Source: a bacterium (GTDB lineage Bacteria; Patescibacteriota; Minisyncoccia; Phycocordibacterales; Phycocordibacteraceae). Taken from it: a stretch of 64,000 bases of DNA. The stretch is from the NCBI GenBank assembly GCA_021849125.1, contig JAJZTG010000002.1, positions 76,573 to 140,572 on the forward strand, read 5' to 3'. The position numbers were made by a program, and so were the translations under genes. The notes under the pieces are model-generated. The model did not search any database and had not been told where the DNA came from. It saw only the letters and a list, made by a program, of their open reading frames with translations. Position 1 is the stretch's first letter, and the number at the start of each line of letters is the position of its first letter. Below are positions 1 to 24,010 of this stretch, one piece after another.

Positions 1-513
1 CAATTCGGTGACCTCATCTTCAAGCTGGAGCCCTGCATACGAGGGAAGGAGTTTCGGAAGGCTCACGATCGACGCGTGTTTCCTGTGGCAAGTATCAAAT
101 GAGTCTTCGACGAACACGTCGCCGAGCATCGCGAGTTCTTTCGCGAAAGAGAGATCATTTGCCTGTTCGCGTTTATCGCGGCGCAGGTTCTCAAGTACGA
201 GAACGTCACCGGGGACCATCGCACGGATTGCGTCGCGAACGCGCGGACCGATCGTCTCCGGGAAGAATGAGACACGCGGGATACGTTTCCCAAGCGCTTT
301 CGCGACGGGCTCGAGGGTCTCGGTCCCCTTCTCCCCGATGTGGCTCACAAGGATGACACGTGCGCCGCGAGAAGAAAGGAATGTAAGCGTGGGAACAGCA
401 CGACGCAGACGATAGTCATTCATGACCACGCCATTCTCGACCGGCACGTTCATCGCGACGCGCACGATGACCGGGATGTTCTTGAGGACGGGGATAGTGC
501 GAACCGATCTCAT
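1..513 (-). CDS. pgk: phosphoglycerate kinase, N-terminal part (gene continues beyond window start)
   Basis: Minus-strand translation from the ATG at 513 gives MRSVRTIPVLKNIPVIVRVAMNVPVENGVVMNDYRLRRAVPTL...ENLRRDKRE, a typical Pgk N-terminus. There is no stop before the window edge, so it is absent from the ORF track. The ATGA junction overlaps the tpiA stop. Confidence 0.8.
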   Translation of the reverse strand, partial: MRSVRTIPVLKNIPVIVRVAMNVPVENGVVMNDYRLRRAVPTLTFLSSRGARVILVSHIGEKGTETLEPVAKALGKRIPRVSFFPETIGPRVRDAIRAMVPGDVLVLENLRRDKREQANDLSFAKELAMLGDVFVEDSFDTCHRKHASIVSLPKLLPSYAGLQLEDEVTEL

Positions 514-2231: not shown

Positions 2232-3991
2232 CGCTTCCTTTTAAAATCTCTCGGGGCTCTATCCTCGTCCTGACGCTCGTCATAAGTGCGGCTATCATGA
2301 CGGTCACCACGAGCTTCTTCGGCTATTTCGGGAGCGCTATCCACGCTGAGCGGGTAGCGCTTGCAGGAACGCAAGCGCGCATGCTTGCCGAAGCAGGCAT
2401 CGATAAAGCCATCTATGAGCTCAATCAGAACTCGAACTACTCAGGAGAGAGCGATACCCCGCTCGGCAACGGGATCTTCAGCGTCTCTGTCGCGAGCATA
2501 GACAGCAACACCAAGAACATTACCGTCACGAGCGCCGTGCCTGATGCGGTTCATCCGACTGCCACGAAAACGGTCCGAGTGAAAGCGAGCATCAATACGA
2601 CGCAAGTGTCGTTCCGCTATGGGGTGCAGGTCGGGACAGGCGGGGTTACCATGGGCAATGGCGCACAGATAGTCGGCAATATCTTCTCGGAAGGGAGCAT
2701 TACGGGCGGTGGTACGGTGACCGGGGATGCGACCGTGTCAGTCTCCACGAATCCGGTGGCCGACCAACAGTCCACCGTACAGAACAGCAGTTTTAACGTG
2801 GGCGACACATCAAGCCATGCCGACGTCGCGCAATCATTCAAGCCTTCGGTGACCACCACCTTGACGAAGGTGAGCCTTGATCTCGCGAAGGTCGGTAATC
2901 CGAGCGATCTTACGATAAAGATCGTGAGCGACAATAGCGGGAAGCCGTCGTCGACCGTGCTTGCGAGCGGCACGATCGCTTCCTCGCTCGTCACTTCTGC
3001 ATATGGTTTTACTGATGTCGCGCTCGACACGTCGCCAACCCTGACAGCGGACCAGTCGTATTGGATCATCGCGATCGCATCAGTGAGCGCATCGAACTAC
3101 TTCAAATGGGGTCTTGATACCTCAAGTGGTTACTCGCGTGGATCGGCGAAATACTCAAGCAATTGGAACGCGCAAAATCCGTCATGGAGCAGCATCTCAG
3201 GCGACCTCGGGTTTCAGGCGTTTGTAAGCGGCACGCTCACCTCGATAAGCGGCATTACCGTCCAAGGGAACGCATGGGCCTATTCCCTCTCGAATTGTAC
3301 GGTCGGCGGCACAGCGACGTATCAGACGATCTCAAGCTGCTCGGTCACGGGTACGCAGTATCCGGGGTCAAATCCAGCAACACCGGGCTCCTTTCCTATT
3401 TCAGATGCGCAGATTGCTGAATGGGAGGCTACGGCGGCGGCGGGCGGTACGCTTTCAGGCCCGTATTCCGTTTCTGGCACACAGGTGTTGGGACCAAAGA
3501 AGATCGAGGGTAATCTTACGGTGACCAATGGCGCAGCGCTTATTCTCAGCGGCCCGGTGTGGGTGAATGGCAACATCACGCTCTCGAACAACGCATCGCT
3601 TTCCATATCTCCGCTGACCGGCTCAAGCGGCGCTATCCTTATCGCGGATGCAACCGGGAATCAAGCGACAGCAGGAAAGGTGCAGCTTTCCAATAACGTG
3701 ACGACAACCGGAAACGGGTCGGCAGGTTCCTATCCTATGGTCATCAGTACGAACACGAGCGATACGGCGATAACCATCTCGAACAACGCGGCGGGCATCA
3801 TCCTTTACGCGCCCTATGGCGGTATGGATGTGAGCAATGGAGCCACGGCGAATCAGCTTACGGCAAAGAAGCTCGAGCTCGAGAATAACTCTACGATTAC
3901 CTACCTGAGCGGTTTGCAGAACGCGAGTTTCAGTAACGGCCCGGGCGGTTCATGGGCCGTGGTGCGAGGAACGTACGCGATCACGCAATAG
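2228..3991 (+). CDS. large pilus-associated protein (N-terminal anchor helix plus Gly/Asn/Thr-rich beta-helix-like repeats); possible tip or adhesin subunit
   Basis: A 587-aa ORF whose start overlaps the previous gene by 4 nt. The N-terminal hydrophobic segment SRGSILVLTLVISAAIM is followed by repeats such as GNLTVTNGAALILSGPVWVNGNITLSNNASLSISPL. No family was recognised. Confidence 0.45.
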   Translation: MTLPFKISRGSILVLTLVISAAIMTVTTSFFGYFGSAIHAERVALAGTQARMLAEAGIDKAIYELNQNSNYSGESDTPLGNGIFSVSVASIDSNTKNITVTSAVPDAVHPTATKTVRVKASINTTQVSFRYGVQVGTGGVTMGNGAQIVGNIFSEGSITGGGTVTGDATVSVSTNPVADQQSTVQNSSFNVGDTSSHADVAQSFKPSVTTTLTKVSLDLAKVGNPSDLTIKIVSDNSGKPSSTVLASGTIASSLVTSAYGFTDVALDTSPTLTADQSYWIIAIASVSASNYFKWGLDTSSGYSRGSAKYSSNWNAQNPSWSSISGDLGFQAFVSGTLTSISGITVQGNAWAYSLSNCTVGGTATYQTISSCSVTGTQYPGSNPATPGSFPISDAQIAEWEATAAAGGTLSGPYSVSGTQVLGPKKIEGNLTVTNGAALILSGPVWVNGNITLSNNASLSISPLTGSSGAILIADATGNQATAGKVQLSNNVTTTGNGSAGSYPMVISTNTSDTAITISNNAAGIILYAPYGGMDVSNGATANQLTAKKLELENNSTITYLSGLQNASFSNGPGGSWAVVRGTYAITQ

Positions 3992-3992
3992 T

Positions 3993-5204
3993 TTAGAACG
4001 CTGACGAGAGCGAATAGATCGGAGAGATCATGGAAACGGCGAACACGCCGACCACGCCGCCGATGACGAGCATGAGGATCGGCTCGATGATAGTCGAGAG
4101 ATCTTTCGTCTTTTCGGCCACATCGCCTTCATAAAATTCTGCGATCTGCTTGAGCATGCCGGCAACATCTCCCGTCTCCTCCCCCACCGCAAGCATATCG
4201 CTCATGAGAAGCGGATAGAGCTTCGTGTGTTCGGCAAATGAGGCTGAGAGGAGTTCGCCCTTGCGAACGTGTTCTTCCGCCTCTGCGATGACACGCGCAA
4301 ACGATTCGGCATGGACCACTTCCTTGGTGATCGCGAGCGCTTCGAGTACCGGGACGCCGGAGGAAAGGAGGGATGAGAGCGTGCGCGCCGCACGCGCCGT
4401 GTAGGTCTCGCGAATGAGTTCATTTATGACTGGAAGGTAGAGAGAGGCTGCGAGTGTCCATCGGGCACCGCGCGTAGAGCGGAAGAATGCGACAGCACCG
4501 CCCATAAGGACGACCAATCCGCCAAGGACAAGCCCGATGTTTCCTACCAAGAAGTTTGAAATAGCTACGATCGCACGAGTGGCGAGTGGCAGTTCCACGC
4601 CAAGCTGGGCAAACGTACTGGTCAAGGTCGGCACGACGAAGATGAGCATCAAGACACCGACGATCACGATGGCGGTGATGACAATCGAGGGATAGATCAT
4701 CGCCCCGCGGATCTTCCGTATGAGTTCCTCCGAGCGTTCCATCTGCAAAGCGACGATATTGAGCGCGTCGGTAAGGGAGCCAGATTCTTCTCCGGCTTTC
4801 ACCATAGCGATAAAGAGTGGCGAAAAGACTTTCGGGTACGCTGCGAGAGCTCCGTGGAATGATTCGCCTTTCTGGATCGATGCAGAAAGGCCAGTGATGA
4901 TCTTCTTGAAATACTTGTTATCGGACTGTCGCTCGGTGACCGAGAGTGCGCGCGAAAGCGAAAGGCCAGCCTTGAGCATGGCGGCGACATTCTTTGCCAT
5001 GCGTATCACGTCAGCACGCTTCACTCCGGTACCGAAGGAGATAAGGAGCCAGGGCGGGAGTTTCGTGCCCGTGTCCTCTACGATCTGTACGACCGTACTT
5101 CCGGTTTGCCCCACCTTATCGTAAACCTCGAAGCGTGAAGCTGCCTCGATGATCTGTTCCTTATCAGGAGCCCCATCAGTATGCACCGTGACGCGGAATT
5201 TCAT
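3993..5204 (-). CDS. pilC: type IV pilus / T2SS inner-membrane platform protein PilC (GspF family)
   Basis: 403 aa with two GspF-type repeats and three TM segments, a typical PilC architecture. It lies directly downstream of pilB. Confidence 0.85.
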   Translation of the reverse strand: MKFRVTVHTDGAPDKEQIIEAASRFEVYDKVGQTGSTVVQIVEDTGTKLPPWLLISFGTGVKRADVIRMAKNVAAMLKAGLSLSRALSVTERQSDNKYFKKIITGLSASIQKGESFHGALAAYPKVFSPLFIAMVKAGEESGSLTDALNIVALQMERSEELIRKIRGAMIYPSIVITAIVIVGVLMLIFVVPTLTSTFAQLGVELPLATRAIVAISNFLVGNIGLVLGGLVVLMGGAVAFFRSTRGARWTLAASLYLPVINELIRETYTARAARTLSSLLSSGVPVLEALAITKEVVHAESFARVIAEAEEHVRKGELLSASFAEHTKLYPLLMSDMLAVGEETGDVAGMLKQIAEFYEGDVAEKTKDLSTIIEPILMLVIGGVVGVFAVSMISPIYSLSSAF

Positions 5205-5208
5205 GGCC

Positions 5209-6957
5209 TTATTCGCTTACAGCACGCAGCACTTCTTCAAGCGAAGTGATGCCACGCGCCGCCTTGTAGAGGCCATCCTCGCGCATGGTAAGCATTCCTT
5301 CCTTCTTCGCTTGCGTCTCGATGGCGTCAGTCGTGCTTTCGTGGAGCATGATCTCGCGGATAGCCGGGGAGACCGCGAGCACTTCATGGATACCGATACG
5401 GCTCTTGTAGCCATCCTCGCAGTCGGGAGAAGAGCCTGGATGGTAGAACTGGATATCATTCAGCTTCGTCCCCTTTGGCACGAGCTTCTCCTCTTCGAGC
5501 GTCTTGAAAGCGATATCGAATTCGGCACCGCTTGCGACCTTGGCGCGCATGTCCGCAGTGAGCGTGTATGCTTCCTTGTTCTCGCAAAGCTTACGTACGA
5601 GGCGTTGGCCGACGATGACGCGGATGGTAGAGGTAAGGAGGAACGGTTCGACACCCATGTCGATCAATCGCGGGATCGCGCCAGCTGCGCTATTGGTATG
5701 GATCGTCGAGAGGACGAGGTGGCCGGTGAGCGCTGCATTGATCGCGAGCGATGCTGTCTCGCTGTCGCGGATCTCGCCGACCATGATGATGTCCGGGTCC
5801 TGGCGCACGAGCGAGCGAAGGCCGGAAGCGAAGGTGAAGCCGATCTGTGCGTTTACCTGCGTCTGATTGATGCGCTTCATCTGATATTCGATCGGATCCT
5901 CGACAGTCGAGATGTTCACGTCGGGCTGATTCAAGATATCGAGCATCGTGTAGAGCGTCGTCGTCTTACCGGAACCGGTCGGACCGGAAATGAGGATGAT
6001 ACCGGTCGTCGCGCCGAGCGCATGATGGATGCGCTCAAGATTCTCGCCATGCAGACCGAGCGCTTCGAGCGTGAAGCCCTCCCCCGTCTCGCGCAGGAGG
6101 CGCATCACGGTCTTTTCCCCGAAGAAAGTCGGGAGGATCGATACGCGGAAGGATACGCGATCAGCTTCGGTTTCCATCTTGAAACGACCGTCCTGAGGAA
6201 GGCGCTTCTCGTCGAGCTTGAGATTCGAGAGCACTTTGATGCGCGCGATGATGCCAGCTGCTGCGGCTTTCGGGAGCGTCATAGCGTCGTGGAGGATGCC
6301 GTCGATGCGGTAGCGGACGAGCACCTGATCTTCCATGGGCTCGATATGGATGTCGGATGCGCCTTGCACGATCGCGTGGCGCAAAAGCGTGTCGACGATG
6401 CGCACGATCGGCAAGTCCTCGGCCATCTTCTTGAGGTCTTCTCCAGAAAGGTCCTTTCCGCCTTCAGCGACCGCCTTGATCTTCCCAGCTTCGGTCGAGA
6501 TGATGTCGCCGAACTCGTCCTTAAGCGATTTCTGGTACTGCAAAAGCGCGTATTTGATACTCTCAGTATCGGTTAGACGCGGGAGGATCTTGAGCCCGGT
6601 CTTCTTGCCGACGGTCTCGATGGACGCGAGATCCTCGACATCGAGCATCGCTATCTCGAGAGAATCGATCGTCTTCTTGTACGCGATGATGTTGTGCGTC
6701 CGCGCGATCGGCTCGGGAATGAGCGAGAGGACGTCCGCGGGAATCTTGTGGTCCTTGAGACTTACGAATGGGATGCCAAGGACATATGCTTGGATGCGTC
6801 GGAGCGCGTCTTCGGTGAGTGCGCCGCGCGAGACGAGGATATCGCCGAGCGACTGCCCGCGTTCAGCCGCCTCTTTCGCTGCATCTTCGACGTCTTTCTT
6901 CGCGACGAGTCCCGAGTCGATGATGAATTCCTTCAGCTCCCCTTCTGAAACGTGCAT
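5209..6957 (-). CDS. pilB: type IV pilus assembly ATPase PilB (GspE family)
   Basis: Walker A GPTGSGKTTTLY, an N-terminal GspII_E-like domain and a Cys-containing C-terminus. 582 aa. Confidence 0.9.
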   Translation of the reverse strand: MHVSEGELKEFIIDSGLVAKKDVEDAAKEAAERGQSLGDILVSRGALTEDALRRIQAYVLGIPFVSLKDHKIPADVLSLIPEPIARTHNIIAYKKTIDSLEIAMLDVEDLASIETVGKKTGLKILPRLTDTESIKYALLQYQKSLKDEFGDIISTEAGKIKAVAEGGKDLSGEDLKKMAEDLPIVRIVDTLLRHAIVQGASDIHIEPMEDQVLVRYRIDGILHDAMTLPKAAAAGIIARIKVLSNLKLDEKRLPQDGRFKMETEADRVSFRVSILPTFFGEKTVMRLLRETGEGFTLEALGLHGENLERIHHALGATTGIILISGPTGSGKTTTLYTMLDILNQPDVNISTVEDPIEYQMKRINQTQVNAQIGFTFASGLRSLVRQDPDIIMVGEIRDSETASLAINAALTGHLVLSTIHTNSAAGAIPRLIDMGVEPFLLTSTIRVIVGQRLVRKLCENKEAYTLTADMRAKVASGAEFDIAFKTLEEEKLVPKGTKLNDIQFYHPGSSPDCEDGYKSRIGIHEVLAVSPAIREIMLHESTTDAIETQAKKEGMLTMREDGLYKAARGITSLEEVLRAVSE

Positions 6958-19140: not shown

Positions 19141-19289
19141 GGCTTTTATAAAAATGGCTTATTTACTATCTATATTTTAGGACCGTAGGATTTTTCCTTT
19201 CTCAGACAAAAGTCCTTTATCCACAATATTAACACGTTTATCCACCACACTTTTGACGTCTTTAAAAGTCTATTTCGCTCCTCGGTCCA

Positions 19290-19515
19290 AACGAAAAGAA
19301 GCCCCAAATCAGGGCTTCTTTTCTTGACTGCCTCACTCGGTGCGGGTACCGAAATGCCGGTACCCGACACCTCGTTCGGCGTAAAAGGAAAACACGAGTT
19401 TCCTCGTGCTTTCCTTTTAGCCTCACTCGGTGCGGGTAAGCAGGAAGCTTGCCCGCTACTTCGCTCGCCGAAACGAAAAAGGAGCAAAAGCTCCTTTTTC
19501 GTTTATCTCGCTCAG
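19290..19515 (-). repeat. three tandem units downstream of tRNA-Gly, each a stem-loop ending in the tRNA acceptor 3' sequence ACCCGCA plus an 11-12-nt flank, and each followed by a terminator hairpin
   Basis: The 18-mer CCTCACTCGGTGCGGGTA occurs twice, and TCTCGCTCAGTGCGGGTA occurs at the genuine tRNA-Gly 3' end. Each copy is paired with an upstream complementary arm. The three terminator hairpins are GAAAAGAAGCCC...GGGCTTCTTTTC, AAAGGAAAACACGAG...CTCGTGCTTTCCTTT and AACGAAAAAGGAGC-AAAA-GCTCCTTTTTCGTT. Confidence 0.5.
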
Positions 19516-19586
19516 TGCGGGTAGGGAGAATCGAACTCCCGTCTCGTCCTTGGCAAGGACGCATTCTACCACTAAACCATACCCGC
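19516..19586 (-). tRNA. tRNA-Gly (anticodon GCC), no encoded CCA
   Basis: GCGGGTATGGTTTAGTGGTAGAATGCGTCCTTGCCAAGGACGAGACGGGAGTTCGATTCTCCCTACCCGCA is a canonical cloverleaf. Confidence 0.85.
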
Positions 19587-19758: not shown

Positions 19759-21219
19759 ATGCTCCACAGGATTCCGCATGAGATTCGCCAGGTTAGCGAT
19801 CGTCTCAAAGAAGGCGGTTTCGAGGCCTATCTGGTCGGCGGTTGCGTCCGTGACCTCCTTCTCGATCACGTCCCTAAGGATTGGGATATCACTACCAATG
19901 CTACCCCAGAGCAAATTCAGGGCGTATTTCCTGACTCTTTTTACGAAAACGATTATGGCACAGTCGGGGTAAAGACCGGCAGCGATGATCCGAAGATCGC
20001 GATCGTGGAGGTGACGCCTTACCGCACGGAATCCGGCTATTCCGACAAGCGTCGTCCAGACGCCGTAACCTTCGGCACTTCCCTCTCCGAAGATCTCGCC
20101 CGTCGCGATTTTACCGTAAACGCGATCGCACTCGACACTCAAGGACACCTCACCGACCCGTACGATGGTCAAAAGGACATAAAAGACAAGGTTATTCGCG
20201 CCGTCGGCAATCCCTCCGAGCGTTTCGGTGAGGATGCACTTCGCATGCTCCGGGCCGTTCGTTTCGTGGCTCAGCTCGGTTTTGGTATAGACGGCGCGAC
20301 CGCAGCGGCAATTAGTGAAAATAAGGCCAATCTAAGCCATGTTTCACGTGAACGAGTGCGTGATGAGCTCGTCCGTATCCTGGAATCGAAGAGTCCCATG
20401 GATGCGCTTGCGCTCGCCCAGCGCCTCGGGATTCTCGAATATATTTCCAAGGATCTCCCGCGTGGCGTGGGTATCGAGCAGAACCAGGCCCACTCCTACG
20501 ATGTCTTTGAGCACTTGCTTCGCACCATGCAGCATGCAGCCGATAAGGACTGGAATTTCGACATCCGCCTAGCTGGCCTTTTTCATGACATCTCTAAGCC
20601 TGAAACGCGTCGCTGGTCTGAAGAGAAGAAGGACTGGACTTTCCATGGGCATGAGGTGGTTGGTTCACGTGTAACGAAAAAGGCCCTCGAAGACCTCCGT
20701 TTTTCACGCGAAACGATAGAAAAGGTAGTAAAACTGGTGCGTTGGCACATGTTTTTCTCCGATCCTGACCAGATTACGCTCTCGGCCGTACGTCGCATGA
20801 TCGTGAACGTGGGGGAGGAGAACATCTGGGATCTCCTGAATTTGCGTATCTGTGACCGTATCGGGACCGGGCGTCCGAAGGAACAGCCGTTCCGCTTCCG
20901 TAAGTATAAAGCGATGGTGGAGCAGGCTCTCAGAGACCCGGTGTCCGTAAAGATGCTAAAGACAGACGGCAGCCGGATCATGGAGAAGTTCCACGTGAAA
21001 GCGGGGCCGAAGGTCGGTTATGTCCTCAACGCGCTCCTTGAGGAGGTGCTCGATAATCCGGCACTCAATAAGGCTGACTATCTAGACGAGCGGACACAAA
21101 CGCTCCTTGAGATGCCGGAAGAGGAGCTTCGTCGCCTTGGCGAGTCTGGAAAGCAGAGAAGGGAAGCTGCCGAGGAGGAAGAGATCCAGCATATCATGGA
21201 AAAGCACCACGTGTGCTAG
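19759..21219 (+). CDS. cca: CCA-adding tRNA nucleotidyltransferase with C-terminal HD domain
   Basis: PolyA-polymerase head domain (GGCVRDLLL...DWD) plus an HD domain. It is transcribed divergently from the tRNA-Arg/Gly locus. Confidence 0.85.
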   Translation: MLHRIPHEIRQVSDRLKEGGFEAYLVGGCVRDLLLDHVPKDWDITTNATPEQIQGVFPDSFYENDYGTVGVKTGSDDPKIAIVEVTPYRTESGYSDKRRPDAVTFGTSLSEDLARRDFTVNAIALDTQGHLTDPYDGQKDIKDKVIRAVGNPSERFGEDALRMLRAVRFVAQLGFGIDGATAAAISENKANLSHVSRERVRDELVRILESKSPMDALALAQRLGILEYISKDLPRGVGIEQNQAHSYDVFEHLLRTMQHAADKDWNFDIRLAGLFHDISKPETRRWSEEKKDWTFHGHEVVGSRVTKKALEDLRFSRETIEKVVKLVRWHMFFSDPDQITLSAVRRMIVNVGEENIWDLLNLRICDRIGTGRPKEQPFRFRKYKAMVEQALRDPVSVKMLKTDGSRIMEKFHVKAGPKVGYVLNALLEEVLDNPALNKADYLDERTQTLLEMPEEELRRLGESGKQRREAAEEEEIQHIMEKHHVC

Positions 21220-22892: not shown

Positions 22893-23810
22893 CTATGTTC
22901 GTCGGGAGTGATATTTCTTGTGGATCTCGCGTAGGTGGGCATCGGTGACGTGAGTGTAGATCTGGGTAGTATTGATCGAGGCGTGGCCGAGGAGCTGCTG
23001 CACGGAGCGGATGTCGGCCCCGTTGCTCAGAAGATCGGTCGCGAAGGCGTGGCGCAGGGTGTGCGGAGTGACGATCGAGGTGATGCCGGCGCGCGCGACG
23101 TAGTTTTTCAGATGACGCTGCACATCGCGCGGTGTGATGCGATGCGGGTGTTTCGGGCGACCGTCGACGAAAAGCGCCTCCTCCATATCGTCGCGTGCTT
23201 TCAAGTAAGTACGGACCGCCTCCTTTGCGGCAGGGGAGAGGAAGACGACGCGGACCTTCTCGCCCTTTCCGCGCACCGAAAGCTCGTCACGGGAGAGGTC
23301 GAGGTCGCTGTTGAGCGAGCAGAGTTCGCTCACGCGAAGTCCGGTCGAGAAAAGCATCTCGAAGATCGCCGTGTCGCGTAGGTACGCGCGCTTTTTATGC
23401 GGATCGGTCTCTTTTGCAGCGGCCTCACGAGGTGCTTTCATGAGCCGGTCGAGCTCGGAGGAAGTGATGAGGTCGAGCTGGCGCTCAGGGAGCTTCGCAA
23501 GCTCGATCTTCTCGGGTGAGATAGCTGGCATATCGCGCTTCCGGAGAAACTTGAGGAACGCGCGCAGCGCGATCATGTAGTAATTCTGCGTGCGTCGCTT
23601 CATCGAGTCGCGGCCGGAGCCTGGTTGGCGGTTGAGCCAGAGACGGAACTCGCGGATGTTCTGCTCGGTGATGTCGCCAGTGGTTTTCACACCCATCTGT
23701 TCGAAGTAGCGGGAGAGATAGTGGTCGTAATTCTCGACGGTTTTGACCGCACGGCCGCGCTCGATCTCTATATATTCAAGAAATTGCCGTTTTGCCGCCT
23801 GGGCGTCCAT
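22893..23810 (-). CDS. xerC: tyrosine site-specific recombinase, Xer-type
   Basis: Catalytic residues R, HxxR and Y in ...TPHTLRHAFATDLLSNGADIRSVQQLLGHASINTTQIYTHV. Start chosen at MDAQAAKRQF (23810). Confidence 0.85.
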   Translation of the reverse strand: MDAQAAKRQFLEYIEIERGRAVKTVENYDHYLSRYFEQMGVKTTGDITEQNIREFRLWLNRQPGSGRDSMKRRTQNYYMIALRAFLKFLRKRDMPAISPEKIELAKLPERQLDLITSSELDRLMKAPREAAAKETDPHKKRAYLRDTAIFEMLFSTGLRVSELCSLNSDLDLSRDELSVRGKGEKVRVVFLSPAAKEAVRTYLKARDDMEEALFVDGRPKHPHRITPRDVQRHLKNYVARAGITSIVTPHTLRHAFATDLLSNGADIRSVQQLLGHASINTTQIYTHVTDAHLREIHKKYHSRRT

Positions 23811-23829
23811 ACGAAAATGGTAGCATGCG

Positions 23830-23861
23830 AAGTGCGCACAATATGACGTTGTTGCGCACAA
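23830..23861. promoter_or_regulatory. dif-like imperfect inverted repeat (candidate Xer recombination site or operator) immediately upstream of the xer gene
   Basis: AAGTGCGCACAA-TATGACG-TTGTTGCGCACAA. The adjacent region carries further GCGC-rich palindromes, including TTGCGCGCAAAACGCGCGCAAG. Confidence 0.35.
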
Positions 23862-24010
23862 ACGAATGCAAAGACGCGCTTGCGCGCAAAACGCGCGCAA
23901 GAACGTGCGAAATTGCGGACCATCCCGCACATTCTCGCCGAGAGGCTCCCGAGCTCGTTATTACGAAAGACTTGCGCTTTTTGGCAAGACGTGGTAGGGT
24001 AGGACTAATC

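Follow-up and report, generated by a model that had tools for sequence, protein, structure and literature searches.

In the Escherichia coli tyrT operon, repeat units of 178 bp carry 19 nt of tRNA-Tyr. One of these units encodes the small RNA rttR (PMC3318445, citing Bosl and Kersten 1991). A different kind of array is known from genomes of the candidate phyla radiation (CPR): TIGR stem-loop arrays, in which variable palindromes stand in tandem with short conserved motifs between them (PMC12045711). The genomes of CPR bacteria are tiny, and the non-coding RNAs of these organisms have hardly been explored. Here we describe a tandem array that begins at the 3′ end of the tRNA-Gly(GCC) gene of an uncultured, Kaiserbacteria-like CPR bacterium, in a 64-kb stretch of contig JAJZTG010000002.1 (the window; all array coordinates are on its minus strand). 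Comparison with related genomes indicates that tRNA trailers in one CPR family are conserved, exchangeable modules, composed of a tRNA-end copy, G.A linkers and a terminator, rather than plain spacers; we found no described tRNA-trailer motif from CPR in the literature. We tentatively favour reading the locus as a modular, cis-acting tRNA-trailer array, with redundant terminators as a fail-safe and with cassettes that originated when sequence at the tRNA 3′ end was duplicated.

The array is built of units of 85-90 nt. Within each, TACCCGCA is followed by a purine-rich linker, and a second linker lies beyond a hairpin whose arms contain an A-tract and a T-tract. The repeated sequence is the last 8 nt of tRNA-Gly(GCC), whose gene does not encode CCA and runs from ...TACCCGCA into a C at 19515. 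Three copies of a 32-nt unit lie in register at 19523-19492, 19438-19407 and 19348-19317, spaced by 85 and 90 nt. Units 2 and 3 have the 5′ linker CCGAGTGAGGC, whereas that of unit 1 is CTGAGCGAGAT. These repeats are not due to chance: TACCCGCA occurs four times in 64 kb, against 1.1 expected, with three of the copies inside 183 nt, and the 19-mer TACCCGCACCGAGTGAGGC is present in exactly two copies in the window and in 0 of 100 shuffles. The linker-rod motif occurs in the 64 kb only at 19273-19515.

A sequence-only reading of this stretch had proposed three repeat units on the minus strand after tRNA-Gly, each with an acceptor-like stem-loop and a perfect terminator hairpin, with identity extending into the 3′ flank instead of the T-arm and a CCA-adding enzyme encoded next door. 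The repeats, the extent of their identity (8 nt of tRNA and 11 nt of flank) and the neighbouring enzyme, recognized by its Pfam domains, are borne out by our analysis. One detail required correction: minihelices are found in units 2 and 3 only, unit 1 being the genuine tRNA 3′ end followed by CTGAGCGAGAT. The hairpins of units 1 and 3 (H1, 15 bp; H3, 12 bp) are perfect, and that of unit 2 (H2) contains one G.U pair. The pairing of the linkers, the fact that the terminators are of the type standard for this genome and the larger related element in other genomes, all set out below, had gone unmentioned.

Each of H1-H3 is a predicted intrinsic terminator with a GC core, an A-tract in the 5′ arm and a T-tract in the 3′ arm. 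A GC stem followed by a U-run is present in all three: GGAGC-TTTT-GCTCC then TTTTTCGTTT in H1, GCACGAG-GAAA-CTCGTG then TTTTCCTTTT in H2, and GAAGCCC..GGGCTTC then TTTTCGTTT in H3. A simple terminator scan missed all three on the minus strand, the T-runs being contained in the stem. With both an A-tract and a T-tract in its arms, H1 is terminator-like on both strands. The terminators as such are unremarkable: the window contains 26 hairpins of at least 10 Watson-Crick pairs, about a dozen of which are intergenic A-tract/GC/T-tract hairpins, and one hairpin of the latter type is found in nearly every related tRNA-Gly trailer. What is remarkable is the triplication, with three such hairpins in the 215 nt of the array, and what lies between them.

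The linkers flanking each terminator form a helix, 5′-CC GA GU GA GG...CC GA AC GA GG-3′, in which Watson-Crick pairs are broken by two tandem G.A/A.G motifs. As the linkers pair back on each other, the terminator becomes the tip of a long rod. This helix is the minimum-free-energy (MFE) structure given by RNAfold for rods 1 and 2. In rod 1, 19515-19505 pairs with 19470-19457 in the order Watson-Crick-Watson-Crick / G.A-A.G / G-C, C-G / G.A-A.G; in rod 2, the 5′ linker pairs with 19381-19371, and the fold has an energy of -40.3 kcal/mol (z = -10; 90% of the ensemble). Across homologues the linkers follow the consensus 5′ CYGAGYGAGG and 3′ CCGARCGAGG, with covariation of the outer pairs (CC/GG, CU/AG in unit 1, UU/AA in one relative, L039) and of the middle pairs (GU/AC, GC/GC) and retention of the G.A pairs. 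Pairing extends to 37 of 52 cells, compared with 32.4 +/- 2.0 for shuffled partners, in an automated alignment that mis-registers unit 1 of the window, and would extend to 41 of 52 with manual re-registration of that unit. Conserved tandem-G.A linkers are absent from the window's other terminators. The tandem G.A pairs lie in symmetric 2x2 internal loops with no bulge, a geometry that does not match a kink-turn. The 3′ linker of rod 2, kept as CGCCGARCGAGGTG in 13 homologues, has two possible partners: its GGTG can pair with CACC after the first minihelix (mh1), closing rod 2, or alternatively with CAC after the second (mh2), lengthening mh2.

The minihelices themselves are stable. The first, mh1, contains both strands of the Gly acceptor stem and a further 3 bp and folds with -15.5 kcal/mol (z = -2.8); mh2 folds with -21.2 kcal/mol (z = -5.9), and together with its flanks (19370-19340) it forms the helix GUG(U)CGGGUACCG...CGGUACCCGCAC, that is, GUG-CGGGUA...UACCCG-CAC. 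Among 13 homologues of mh2, 91% of cells are paired, the inner pairs are doubly changed (TGG/CCA, CCG/CGG, TCG/CGA) and the covariation score was never matched by control shuffles. Homologues of mh1 are present in L052, L007 and L021 (L-numbers label the compared loci of relatives), and its start, GCGGG(C/T)AAGC, is common to the larger element of L015, L018 and L023. In both minihelices the acceptor 3′ strand is identical to the tRNA, and the 5′ strand matches at 6 of 7 positions in both window copies. In mh2, the 5′ arm equals nt 1-10 of tRNA-Gly in relatives and the 3′ part is similar to nt ~57-74, which suggests that mh2 is an internally deleted tRNA copy. Six genomes share a 3′-arm variant, TACACGCA, and have TACCCGCA in the tRNA itself; this marks the hairpins as old lineages and not fresh copies of the local tRNA.

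The sequence-only reading had offered, as one of two possibilities, that such minihelices are functional tRNA mimics, for instance substrates or decoys for the CCA-adding enzyme or RNase P/Z. In the version considered here, acceptor-like hairpins would be cut from read-through RNA and would serve these enzymes, glycyl-tRNA synthetase or acceptor-targeting toxins as substrates or decoys. The conservation of the hairpins speaks for this proposal. They are stable, with compensatory inner pairs and a kept loop; they carry the two strands of the acceptor and match the tRNA in 3′ arm and discriminator; cassettes behind tRNA-Gly(UCC) carry that tRNA's own end, TATCCCGCA; and the larger relative imitates the acceptor and T stems. 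Other features speak against tRNA-like function. In 13 of 13 copies of mh2, an upstream GU pairs with discriminator A73 and C74, so that the hairpin is blunt and lacks a free 3′ tail, and the pair equivalent to 3:70 is broken in 7 of the 13. Neither minihelix has a stacked T stem-loop: each adds 3 bp to the acceptor part and closes with a loop of 5-6 nt (TTCCT and GCATTT), with no TTCGA-type loop; a T-stem copy is confined to the larger element of relatives. A covariance-model search with Rfam, a check of the kind that had been suggested, found nothing tRNA-like in 19150-19530 even at E <= 10, and the four real tRNAs of the window are the only ones to score. Because the discriminator is paired, the T-arm is missing, a terminator precedes each minihelix, the array is dispensable (the nearest relatives do without it) and the cca gene adjoins the tRNA cluster independently of the array, the data argue against a simple decoy or substrate, and we consider functional mimicry quite unlikely. 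The repeats of the window are real and conserved, yet by these features the minihelices appear to be poor candidates for substrates of the CCA enzyme or RNase P/Z, and they are probably vestigial or structural.

Table 1. Coordinates of the array, its neighbours and related features in other genomes
Feature	Location	Strand	Evidence or remark
tRNA-Arg(TCG)	19697-19626	−	ARAGORN, Rfam
tRNA-Gly(GCC)	19586-19516	−	ARAGORN; Rfam RF00005, 70.3 bits
Rod 1 5′ linker CTGAGCGAGAT	19515-19505	−	Sequence, RNAfold MFE
Rod/terminator H1 AAACGAAAAAGGAGC-TTTT-GCTCCTTTTTCGTTT	19504-19471	−	Inverted repeat, perfect 15 bp
Rod 1 3′ linker CGGCGAGCGAAGTA	19470-19457	−	Sequence, fold
Minihelix 1 (mh1) GCGGGCAAGC-TTCCT-GCTTACCCGC-A	19456-19431	−	Fold, homologues
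Rod 2 5′ linker CCGAGTGAGGC	19430-19420	−	Exact repeat
Rod/terminator H2 TAAAAGGAAAGCACGAG-GAAA-CTCGTGTTTTCCTTTTA	19419-19382	−	Inverted repeat, 17 bp with one G.U
Rod 2 3′ linker CGCCGAACGAGGTGT	19381-19367	−	Fold, homologues
Minihelix 2 (mh2) CGGGTACCG-GCATTT-CGGTACCCG-CA	19366-19341	−	Fold, 13 homologues
Rod 3 5′ linker CCGAGTGAGGC	19340-19330	−	Exact repeat
Rod/terminator H3 GAAAAGAAGCCC-TGATTTG-GGGCTTCTTTTC, then GTTT	19323-19293	−	Inverted repeat, perfect 12 bp
Rod 3 degenerate 3′ linker GGACCGAGGAGCGAAA, array end	19288-19273	−	Sequence; weakly paired in fold
tRNA-Pro(TGG) trailer	18573-18492	−	Alignment with L015 element behind tRNA-Pro
CCA-adding enzyme gene	19759-21219	+	Pfam PolyA_pol, PolyA_pol_RNAbd, HD
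Xer-like tyrosine recombinase	22893-23930	−	Phage_int_SAM_1 and Phage_integrase; adjoins rpsO
Large element, L015	5401-5520(-), 2661-2784(-), 2494-2611(-), 4463-4602(+)		Model R1
Large element, L016	2985-3107(-)		Model R1
Large element, L007	3201-3323(-)		Model R1
Large element, L069	2215-2316(-)		Model R1
Large element, L073	3321-3444(-)		Model R1
Large serine recombinase, L056	2034-4457		Reverse transcriptase also in L056
Large serine recombinase, L068	2359-3684		
Endonuclease VII gene, L022	5256-5696		
Endonuclease VII gene, L036	5133-5561		
Endonuclease VII gene, L059	4072-4515		
Endonuclease VII gene, L051	4389-4853		
ThsB-type TIR gene, L002	960-1559		

The relatives that we compared are Kaiserbacteria/Paceibacterota metagenome-assembled genomes. 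Their closest CCA enzymes are 83-84% identical to that of the window, with none above 84% among 5.8 billion proteins, and an exact look-up of the YraN protein gave no match. The gene order cca, tRNA-Arg, tRNA-Gly(GCC), yraN, tRNA-Pro, tRNA-Gly(UCC) is conserved. Within it, between one and three cassettes (linker, rod, linker, minihelix) are found in about 17 of 66 tRNA-Gly(GCC) trailers, so that the alignment with related genomes proposed in the sequence-only reading does reveal conservation; equivalent cassettes follow tRNA-Gly(UCC) in L009 and L018. They are preserved across genomes whose CCA enzymes are just 73-80% identical. The rods are distributed as a mosaic: the 'cacgag/ctcgtg' rod takes the H2 place in L052 and in the window and the H1 place in L062, L028 and L292, with compensatory arm changes among its orthologous copies, and the H2 rod of L062 is the H1 rod of L026. 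More generally, of 227 tRNAs, 29 have 8 nt of their own 3′ end repeated exactly at a distance of 20-400 nt downstream, and none of the 227 has such a copy upstream. Comparison of filled and empty sites places the array or the larger element exactly between ...CGCA(C) and the ordinary trailer, which in empty genomes directly adjoins the tRNA. A metagenome scan with the short pattern ACCCGCACYGAGHGAGR returned 120 loci, 119 of them chance matches and L292 alone real. Judged by these comparisons, the cassettes are neither chance repeats nor simple scars, and they are shared patchily by related genomes.

Two DnaA-box-like 9-mers, GGTGGATAA (19246-19238) and the perfect TGTGGATAA (19225-19217), lie between the array and yraN (19217-19246, minus strand), in a block (..GGATAAA..TGGGGATAAAGGAC..) that is kept in almost all relatives; the GC skew of the window has no sign change that would mark a replication origin there. 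Separately, CCA encoding differs among the tRNA-Gly 3′ ends of L001-L080. The first C is encoded nearly always, and what follows A73 is CTG in the window, CC-G in many relatives and a full CCA in L002, L007, L012 and L014.

The conservation bears on whether the array is neutral debris, that is, decayed tandem duplications of the tRNA-Gly gene and its terminator, or the integration relics suggested in the sequence-only reading, functionless now. The composition of mh2, with tRNA nt 1-10 joined to ~57-74, has the look of a decayed copy, many copies carry acceptor-like mismatches, the array is dispensable, and a plain 12-nt tRNA-end duplication exists at the tRNA-Arg of L004. Integration is favoured in particular by the array's boundaries, the tRNA end on one side and the empty-site trailer on the other, and by the frequency of insertions in this flank. 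Against decay or scarring, the mh2 loop, the linkers and rod X are still recognizable across genomes with 73-80% identical proteins, compensatory changes are present in mh2, rods and linkers, the tandem G.A positions have been retained without drift, and no foreign DNA lies between the repeats. The data thus argue against plain decay, and we find the debris explanation improbable. The L004 duplication (~160-185, minus strand) is a tandem 12-nt repeat of the tRNA-Arg 3′ end including CCA (GTCGGGGCACCA CA GTCGGGGCACCA), a simple case of tRNA-end duplication in the family.

At the position of mh1, relatives often hold a 130-190-nt element on the tRNA strand. Its hosts are tRNA-Gly(GCC), tRNA-Gly(UCC) and tRNA-Pro, with a divergent form behind tRNA-Arg. 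The element begins with the 5′ acceptor strand of the upstream tRNA (GTGCGGGTA) and a variable hairpin, continues with GGGAGAATCGAA, which is complementary to the T-loop and to the 3′ strand of the T-stem of the tRNA, and then with a conserved three-hairpin core, and ends in a copy of the last 13-20 nt of the tRNA. Both stems, T and acceptor, of the adjoining tRNA (Arg, Gly, Gly, Pro) are thus reproduced in the closing helix of the element. No Rfam family matches it in the relatives; at the gathering score and at E <= 10, the window and the relatives gave tRNAs and noise only, for example ylbH at 19 bits. A covariance model, R1, built from 13 copies yielded 31 hits in 85 sources and no hit in the window. 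In the element, 94.6% of cells are paired and 17 of 20 pairs show double changes, with the observed value reached by 0 of 500 shuffles; one G.U pair is conserved, and on the tRNA-sense strand there are 50 G.U against 6 A.C in an alignment fitted to the model. Genomes carry multiple copies. Within- versus between-genome identity of the cores did not discriminate, and copies behind tRNA-Pro group together across genomes, clustering by tRNA type in a way that suggests vertical lineages. Tandem and truncated copies are found in L015, L023 and L037 and in the window's tRNA-Pro trailer. The latter has a leader ACGTAACGAAGTGGAGTGAGG, a hairpin and a P4-like GCGATGAAAACGTAATCGC, with no core and no terminal tRNA copy, and is apparently a decayed copy of the element. 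The minihelices of the window look like reduced relatives of the element.

Several other loci touch on the larger element. About 160 nt downstream of tRNA-Arg(TCG), a 13-20 nt copy of the tRNA-Arg 3′ end follows GCGTAATCGCGG in L007 (~4170-4330, minus strand), L008, L009, L016, L019, L024 and L037, with no R1 hit listed; these copies look like a divergent variant of the element and explain part of the variable Arg-Gly spacing. In L018 (plus strand, from the tRNA-Gly 3′ end) and L023 (~5690-5750, minus strand), the tRNA 3′ end, the terminator and the start of the element form one near-perfect palindrome of 22-24 bp, TACCCGCAC-AAAATACAAAAGCCCC-loop-GGGGCTTTTGTATTTT-GTGCGGGCA, which could allow read-through RNA to sequester the acceptor strand of the tRNA itself. 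Among 120 viral contigs, retrieved by means of the core 14-mer GAGGCGGGGTCGCG, matches were due to chance except for L086 (IMGVR_UViG_3300033463_005745; 3066-3187, minus strand; 47 bits), the sole core hit outside Kaiserbacteria loci. Its closing stem, GGGATTTG/CAAATCCC, is not a tRNA copy and no tRNA lies nearby; a second partial copy is present upstream, and the neighbouring genes are cellular-looking (GalE-like, cytidine deaminase-like).

Together, the cassettes and the larger element may constitute an undescribed class of structured RNA linked to tRNA genes in CPR, with a possible role in tRNA maturation or surveillance or with self-templated, target-guided mobility; we regard this as possible, if doubtful. 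In such a class, the termini of each copy would be set by the neighbouring tRNA 3′ end, the 5′ part being antisense to tRNA positions ~54-74 and the 3′ part a copy of them, and such an RNA could pair with itself, with the tRNA or with the tRNA gene. Should the larger element prove to be a functional RNA, the class of tRNA-linked RNAs to which it belongs would be new; should it prove mobile, so would its way of targeting tRNA genes.

The larger element, together with the rod-plus-minihelix cassettes as its minimal or decayed forms, might be non-autonomous, selfish insertions that target tRNA 3′ ends, moving as folded single strands or with a recombinase acting in trans, and their structure might be conserved for that mobility. 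Each insertion would regenerate its target, and arrays would therefore build up. Several observations fit: occurrence is patchy even between sisters (L007 versus L008, L016 versus L027), filled and empty sites are precise with 8-20 nt direct repeats of the tRNA end, four tRNAs serve as targets with element ends matching each, and tandem or truncated copies occur at the four loci named above. In addition, the tRNA-Gly(GCC) 3′ flank is an insertion hotspot in relatives, where it has received islands with large serine recombinases, Endonuclease VII genes whose ends lie some 12 nt away from the tRNA, and a TIR gene of the ThsB type; recombination-based origins therefore stay plausible. Patchiness and exact boundaries are better explained by mobile cassettes than by a cis-acting trailer array. 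On the other side, no transposase or integrase accompanies the cassettes, the core is essentially absent from the viral contigs, copies in the same genome are not near-identical while tRNA-Pro copies cluster across genomes, the rods of one array differ completely between cassettes, and the Xer-like recombinase, at a distance of 3 kb, keeps its syntenic place in relatives whether or not they carry an array. On balance we think it unlikely that the cassettes are mobile elements of this kind.

The same recombinase, encoded 3.5 kb from mh2, raises a DNA-level explanation, in which the 12-6-12 format of mh2 (GTGCGGGTANNN-GCATTT-NNNTACCCGCAC) would be a tyrosine-recombinase core (dif/lox-like) or the operator of a dimeric repressor. 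The site is a near-perfect palindrome with a conserved 6-bp spacer, and neither mh2 nor the rods show a wobble strand bias. Nevertheless, a folded strand accounts better for the symmetric double changes of the inner arms than does a duplex contacted by protein; mh1 differs in its arms and has a spacer of 5 nt; the tRNA end makes up less than a full site; the recombinase is encoded whether or not an array is present; and the flanking G.A linkers are sensible only in a folded single strand. A DNA site of this kind is very improbable. Two further hypotheses were rejected: a small open reading frame behind a Shine-Dalgarno-like GAGGTG, whose ATG is found in L052-type copies and is absent from the window, and a type III toxin-antitoxin system, the downstream gene being UPF0102/YraN, syntenic in array-less relatives.

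The cis-acting trailer array that we favour would work as follows. Each cassette consists of the tRNA-Gly 3′ end or a hairpin copy of it, a linker, a predicted bidirectional intrinsic terminator of the ordinary type and the matching linker. Cassettes would be gained at the tRNA 3′ end by a duplication or insertion that copies its last 8-9 nt and the linker, and recombination between the direct repeats would shuffle or delete them, which would explain their mosaic, patchy distribution. The two minihelices would be reduced relatives of the larger element, mh1 corresponding to its terminal helix together with the base of its first hairpin and mh2 to tRNA nt 1-10 joined to nt ~57-74. Acting in cis and as RNA, the array would end the tRNA-Arg/tRNA-Gly transcription unit, with three serial terminators halting strong tRNA transcription ahead of the DnaA-box region and yraN; any read-through RNA would fold into rods and blunt hairpins.

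A number of observations weigh against this model. Three serial terminators are not obviously needed, most relatives having one, and each minihelix sits behind a strong predicted terminator. The array is missing from the nearest relatives (L001, L322-L324), and its carriers are scattered on the CCA-protein tree, with differences between the sister genomes already named; the array is therefore dispensable. Covariation of the linkers is modest, with an A.A mismatch in GAGAGA variants, and the rods lack a wobble strand bias (G.T 12 versus A.C 9). The mismatch in mh1 that is shared by L052 and L007 reads C.A on the tRNA-sense strand and would be G.U on the plus strand, on which the mh1 hairpin is also more stable (-19.3 versus -15.5 kcal/mol). 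Finally, the GCATTT loop of mh2 is conserved, which implies that its sequence has a specific role, and the trailer array does not supply one.

Set beside described systems, the locus shows both likenesses and differences. As with the tRNA fragments of attL/attR sites, an insertion that starts exactly at the tRNA end is enclosed by directly repeated tRNA 3′ sequence, and in relatives repeats of 13-20 nt flank the non-coding larger element. Unlike att sites, the array repeats 8 nt of tRNA together with 11 nt of flank, its units contain no open reading frames or genes and show compensatory changes, and every copy is preceded by its own complement. Acceptor minihelices and mascRNA-type modules differ in the features that count against mimicry above: here the T-arm is absent, the discriminator is paired, the acceptor has mismatches and the hairpins lie behind terminators. 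Clustered intergenic hairpins downstream of genes recall repetitive extragenic palindromes and bacterial interspersed mosaic elements (REP/BIME); unlike these, the array occupies one locus in 64 kb, in a single orientation, with no GTAG/CTAC signature at both ends. Its hairpins share with bidirectional intrinsic terminators the GC core and the A-tract and T-tract arms, and they differ from the window's other terminators in being three within 215 nt and in having a base extended by the conserved double tandem-G.A helix.

Two further resemblances are to the arrays introduced at the outset. TIGR arrays (PMC12045711) likewise place variable stem-loops in tandem with conserved inter-loop motifs in a CPR host. 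Unlike TIGR-Tas, the array has no dual 8-12-nt spacers with box C/D-like motifs, its rod loops are 4-7 nt long, its inter-rod segments are conserved linkers and a minihelix, and it is tied to a tRNA 3′ end; by Pfam, no Nop-domain Tas protein is encoded in the genes from about 13.9 to 26 kb of the window. RtT RNA, which we take to be among the Rfam 15 families, gave no hit at the gathering score in the window and none at E <= 10 in 19150-19530. In E. coli tyrT/rttR (RtT), as here, the units stand in tandem right behind a tRNA gene and on its strand, and every unit repeats the 3′-terminal segment of the tRNA; the tyrT transcript ends inside the repeats. In contrast to tyrT/rttR, to which they show no relation in sequence, the units here are 85-90 nt long, have their own predicted intrinsic terminators with differing cores and carry G.A linkers, and the complement of the tRNA end is present as well, turning the copied end into a hairpin.

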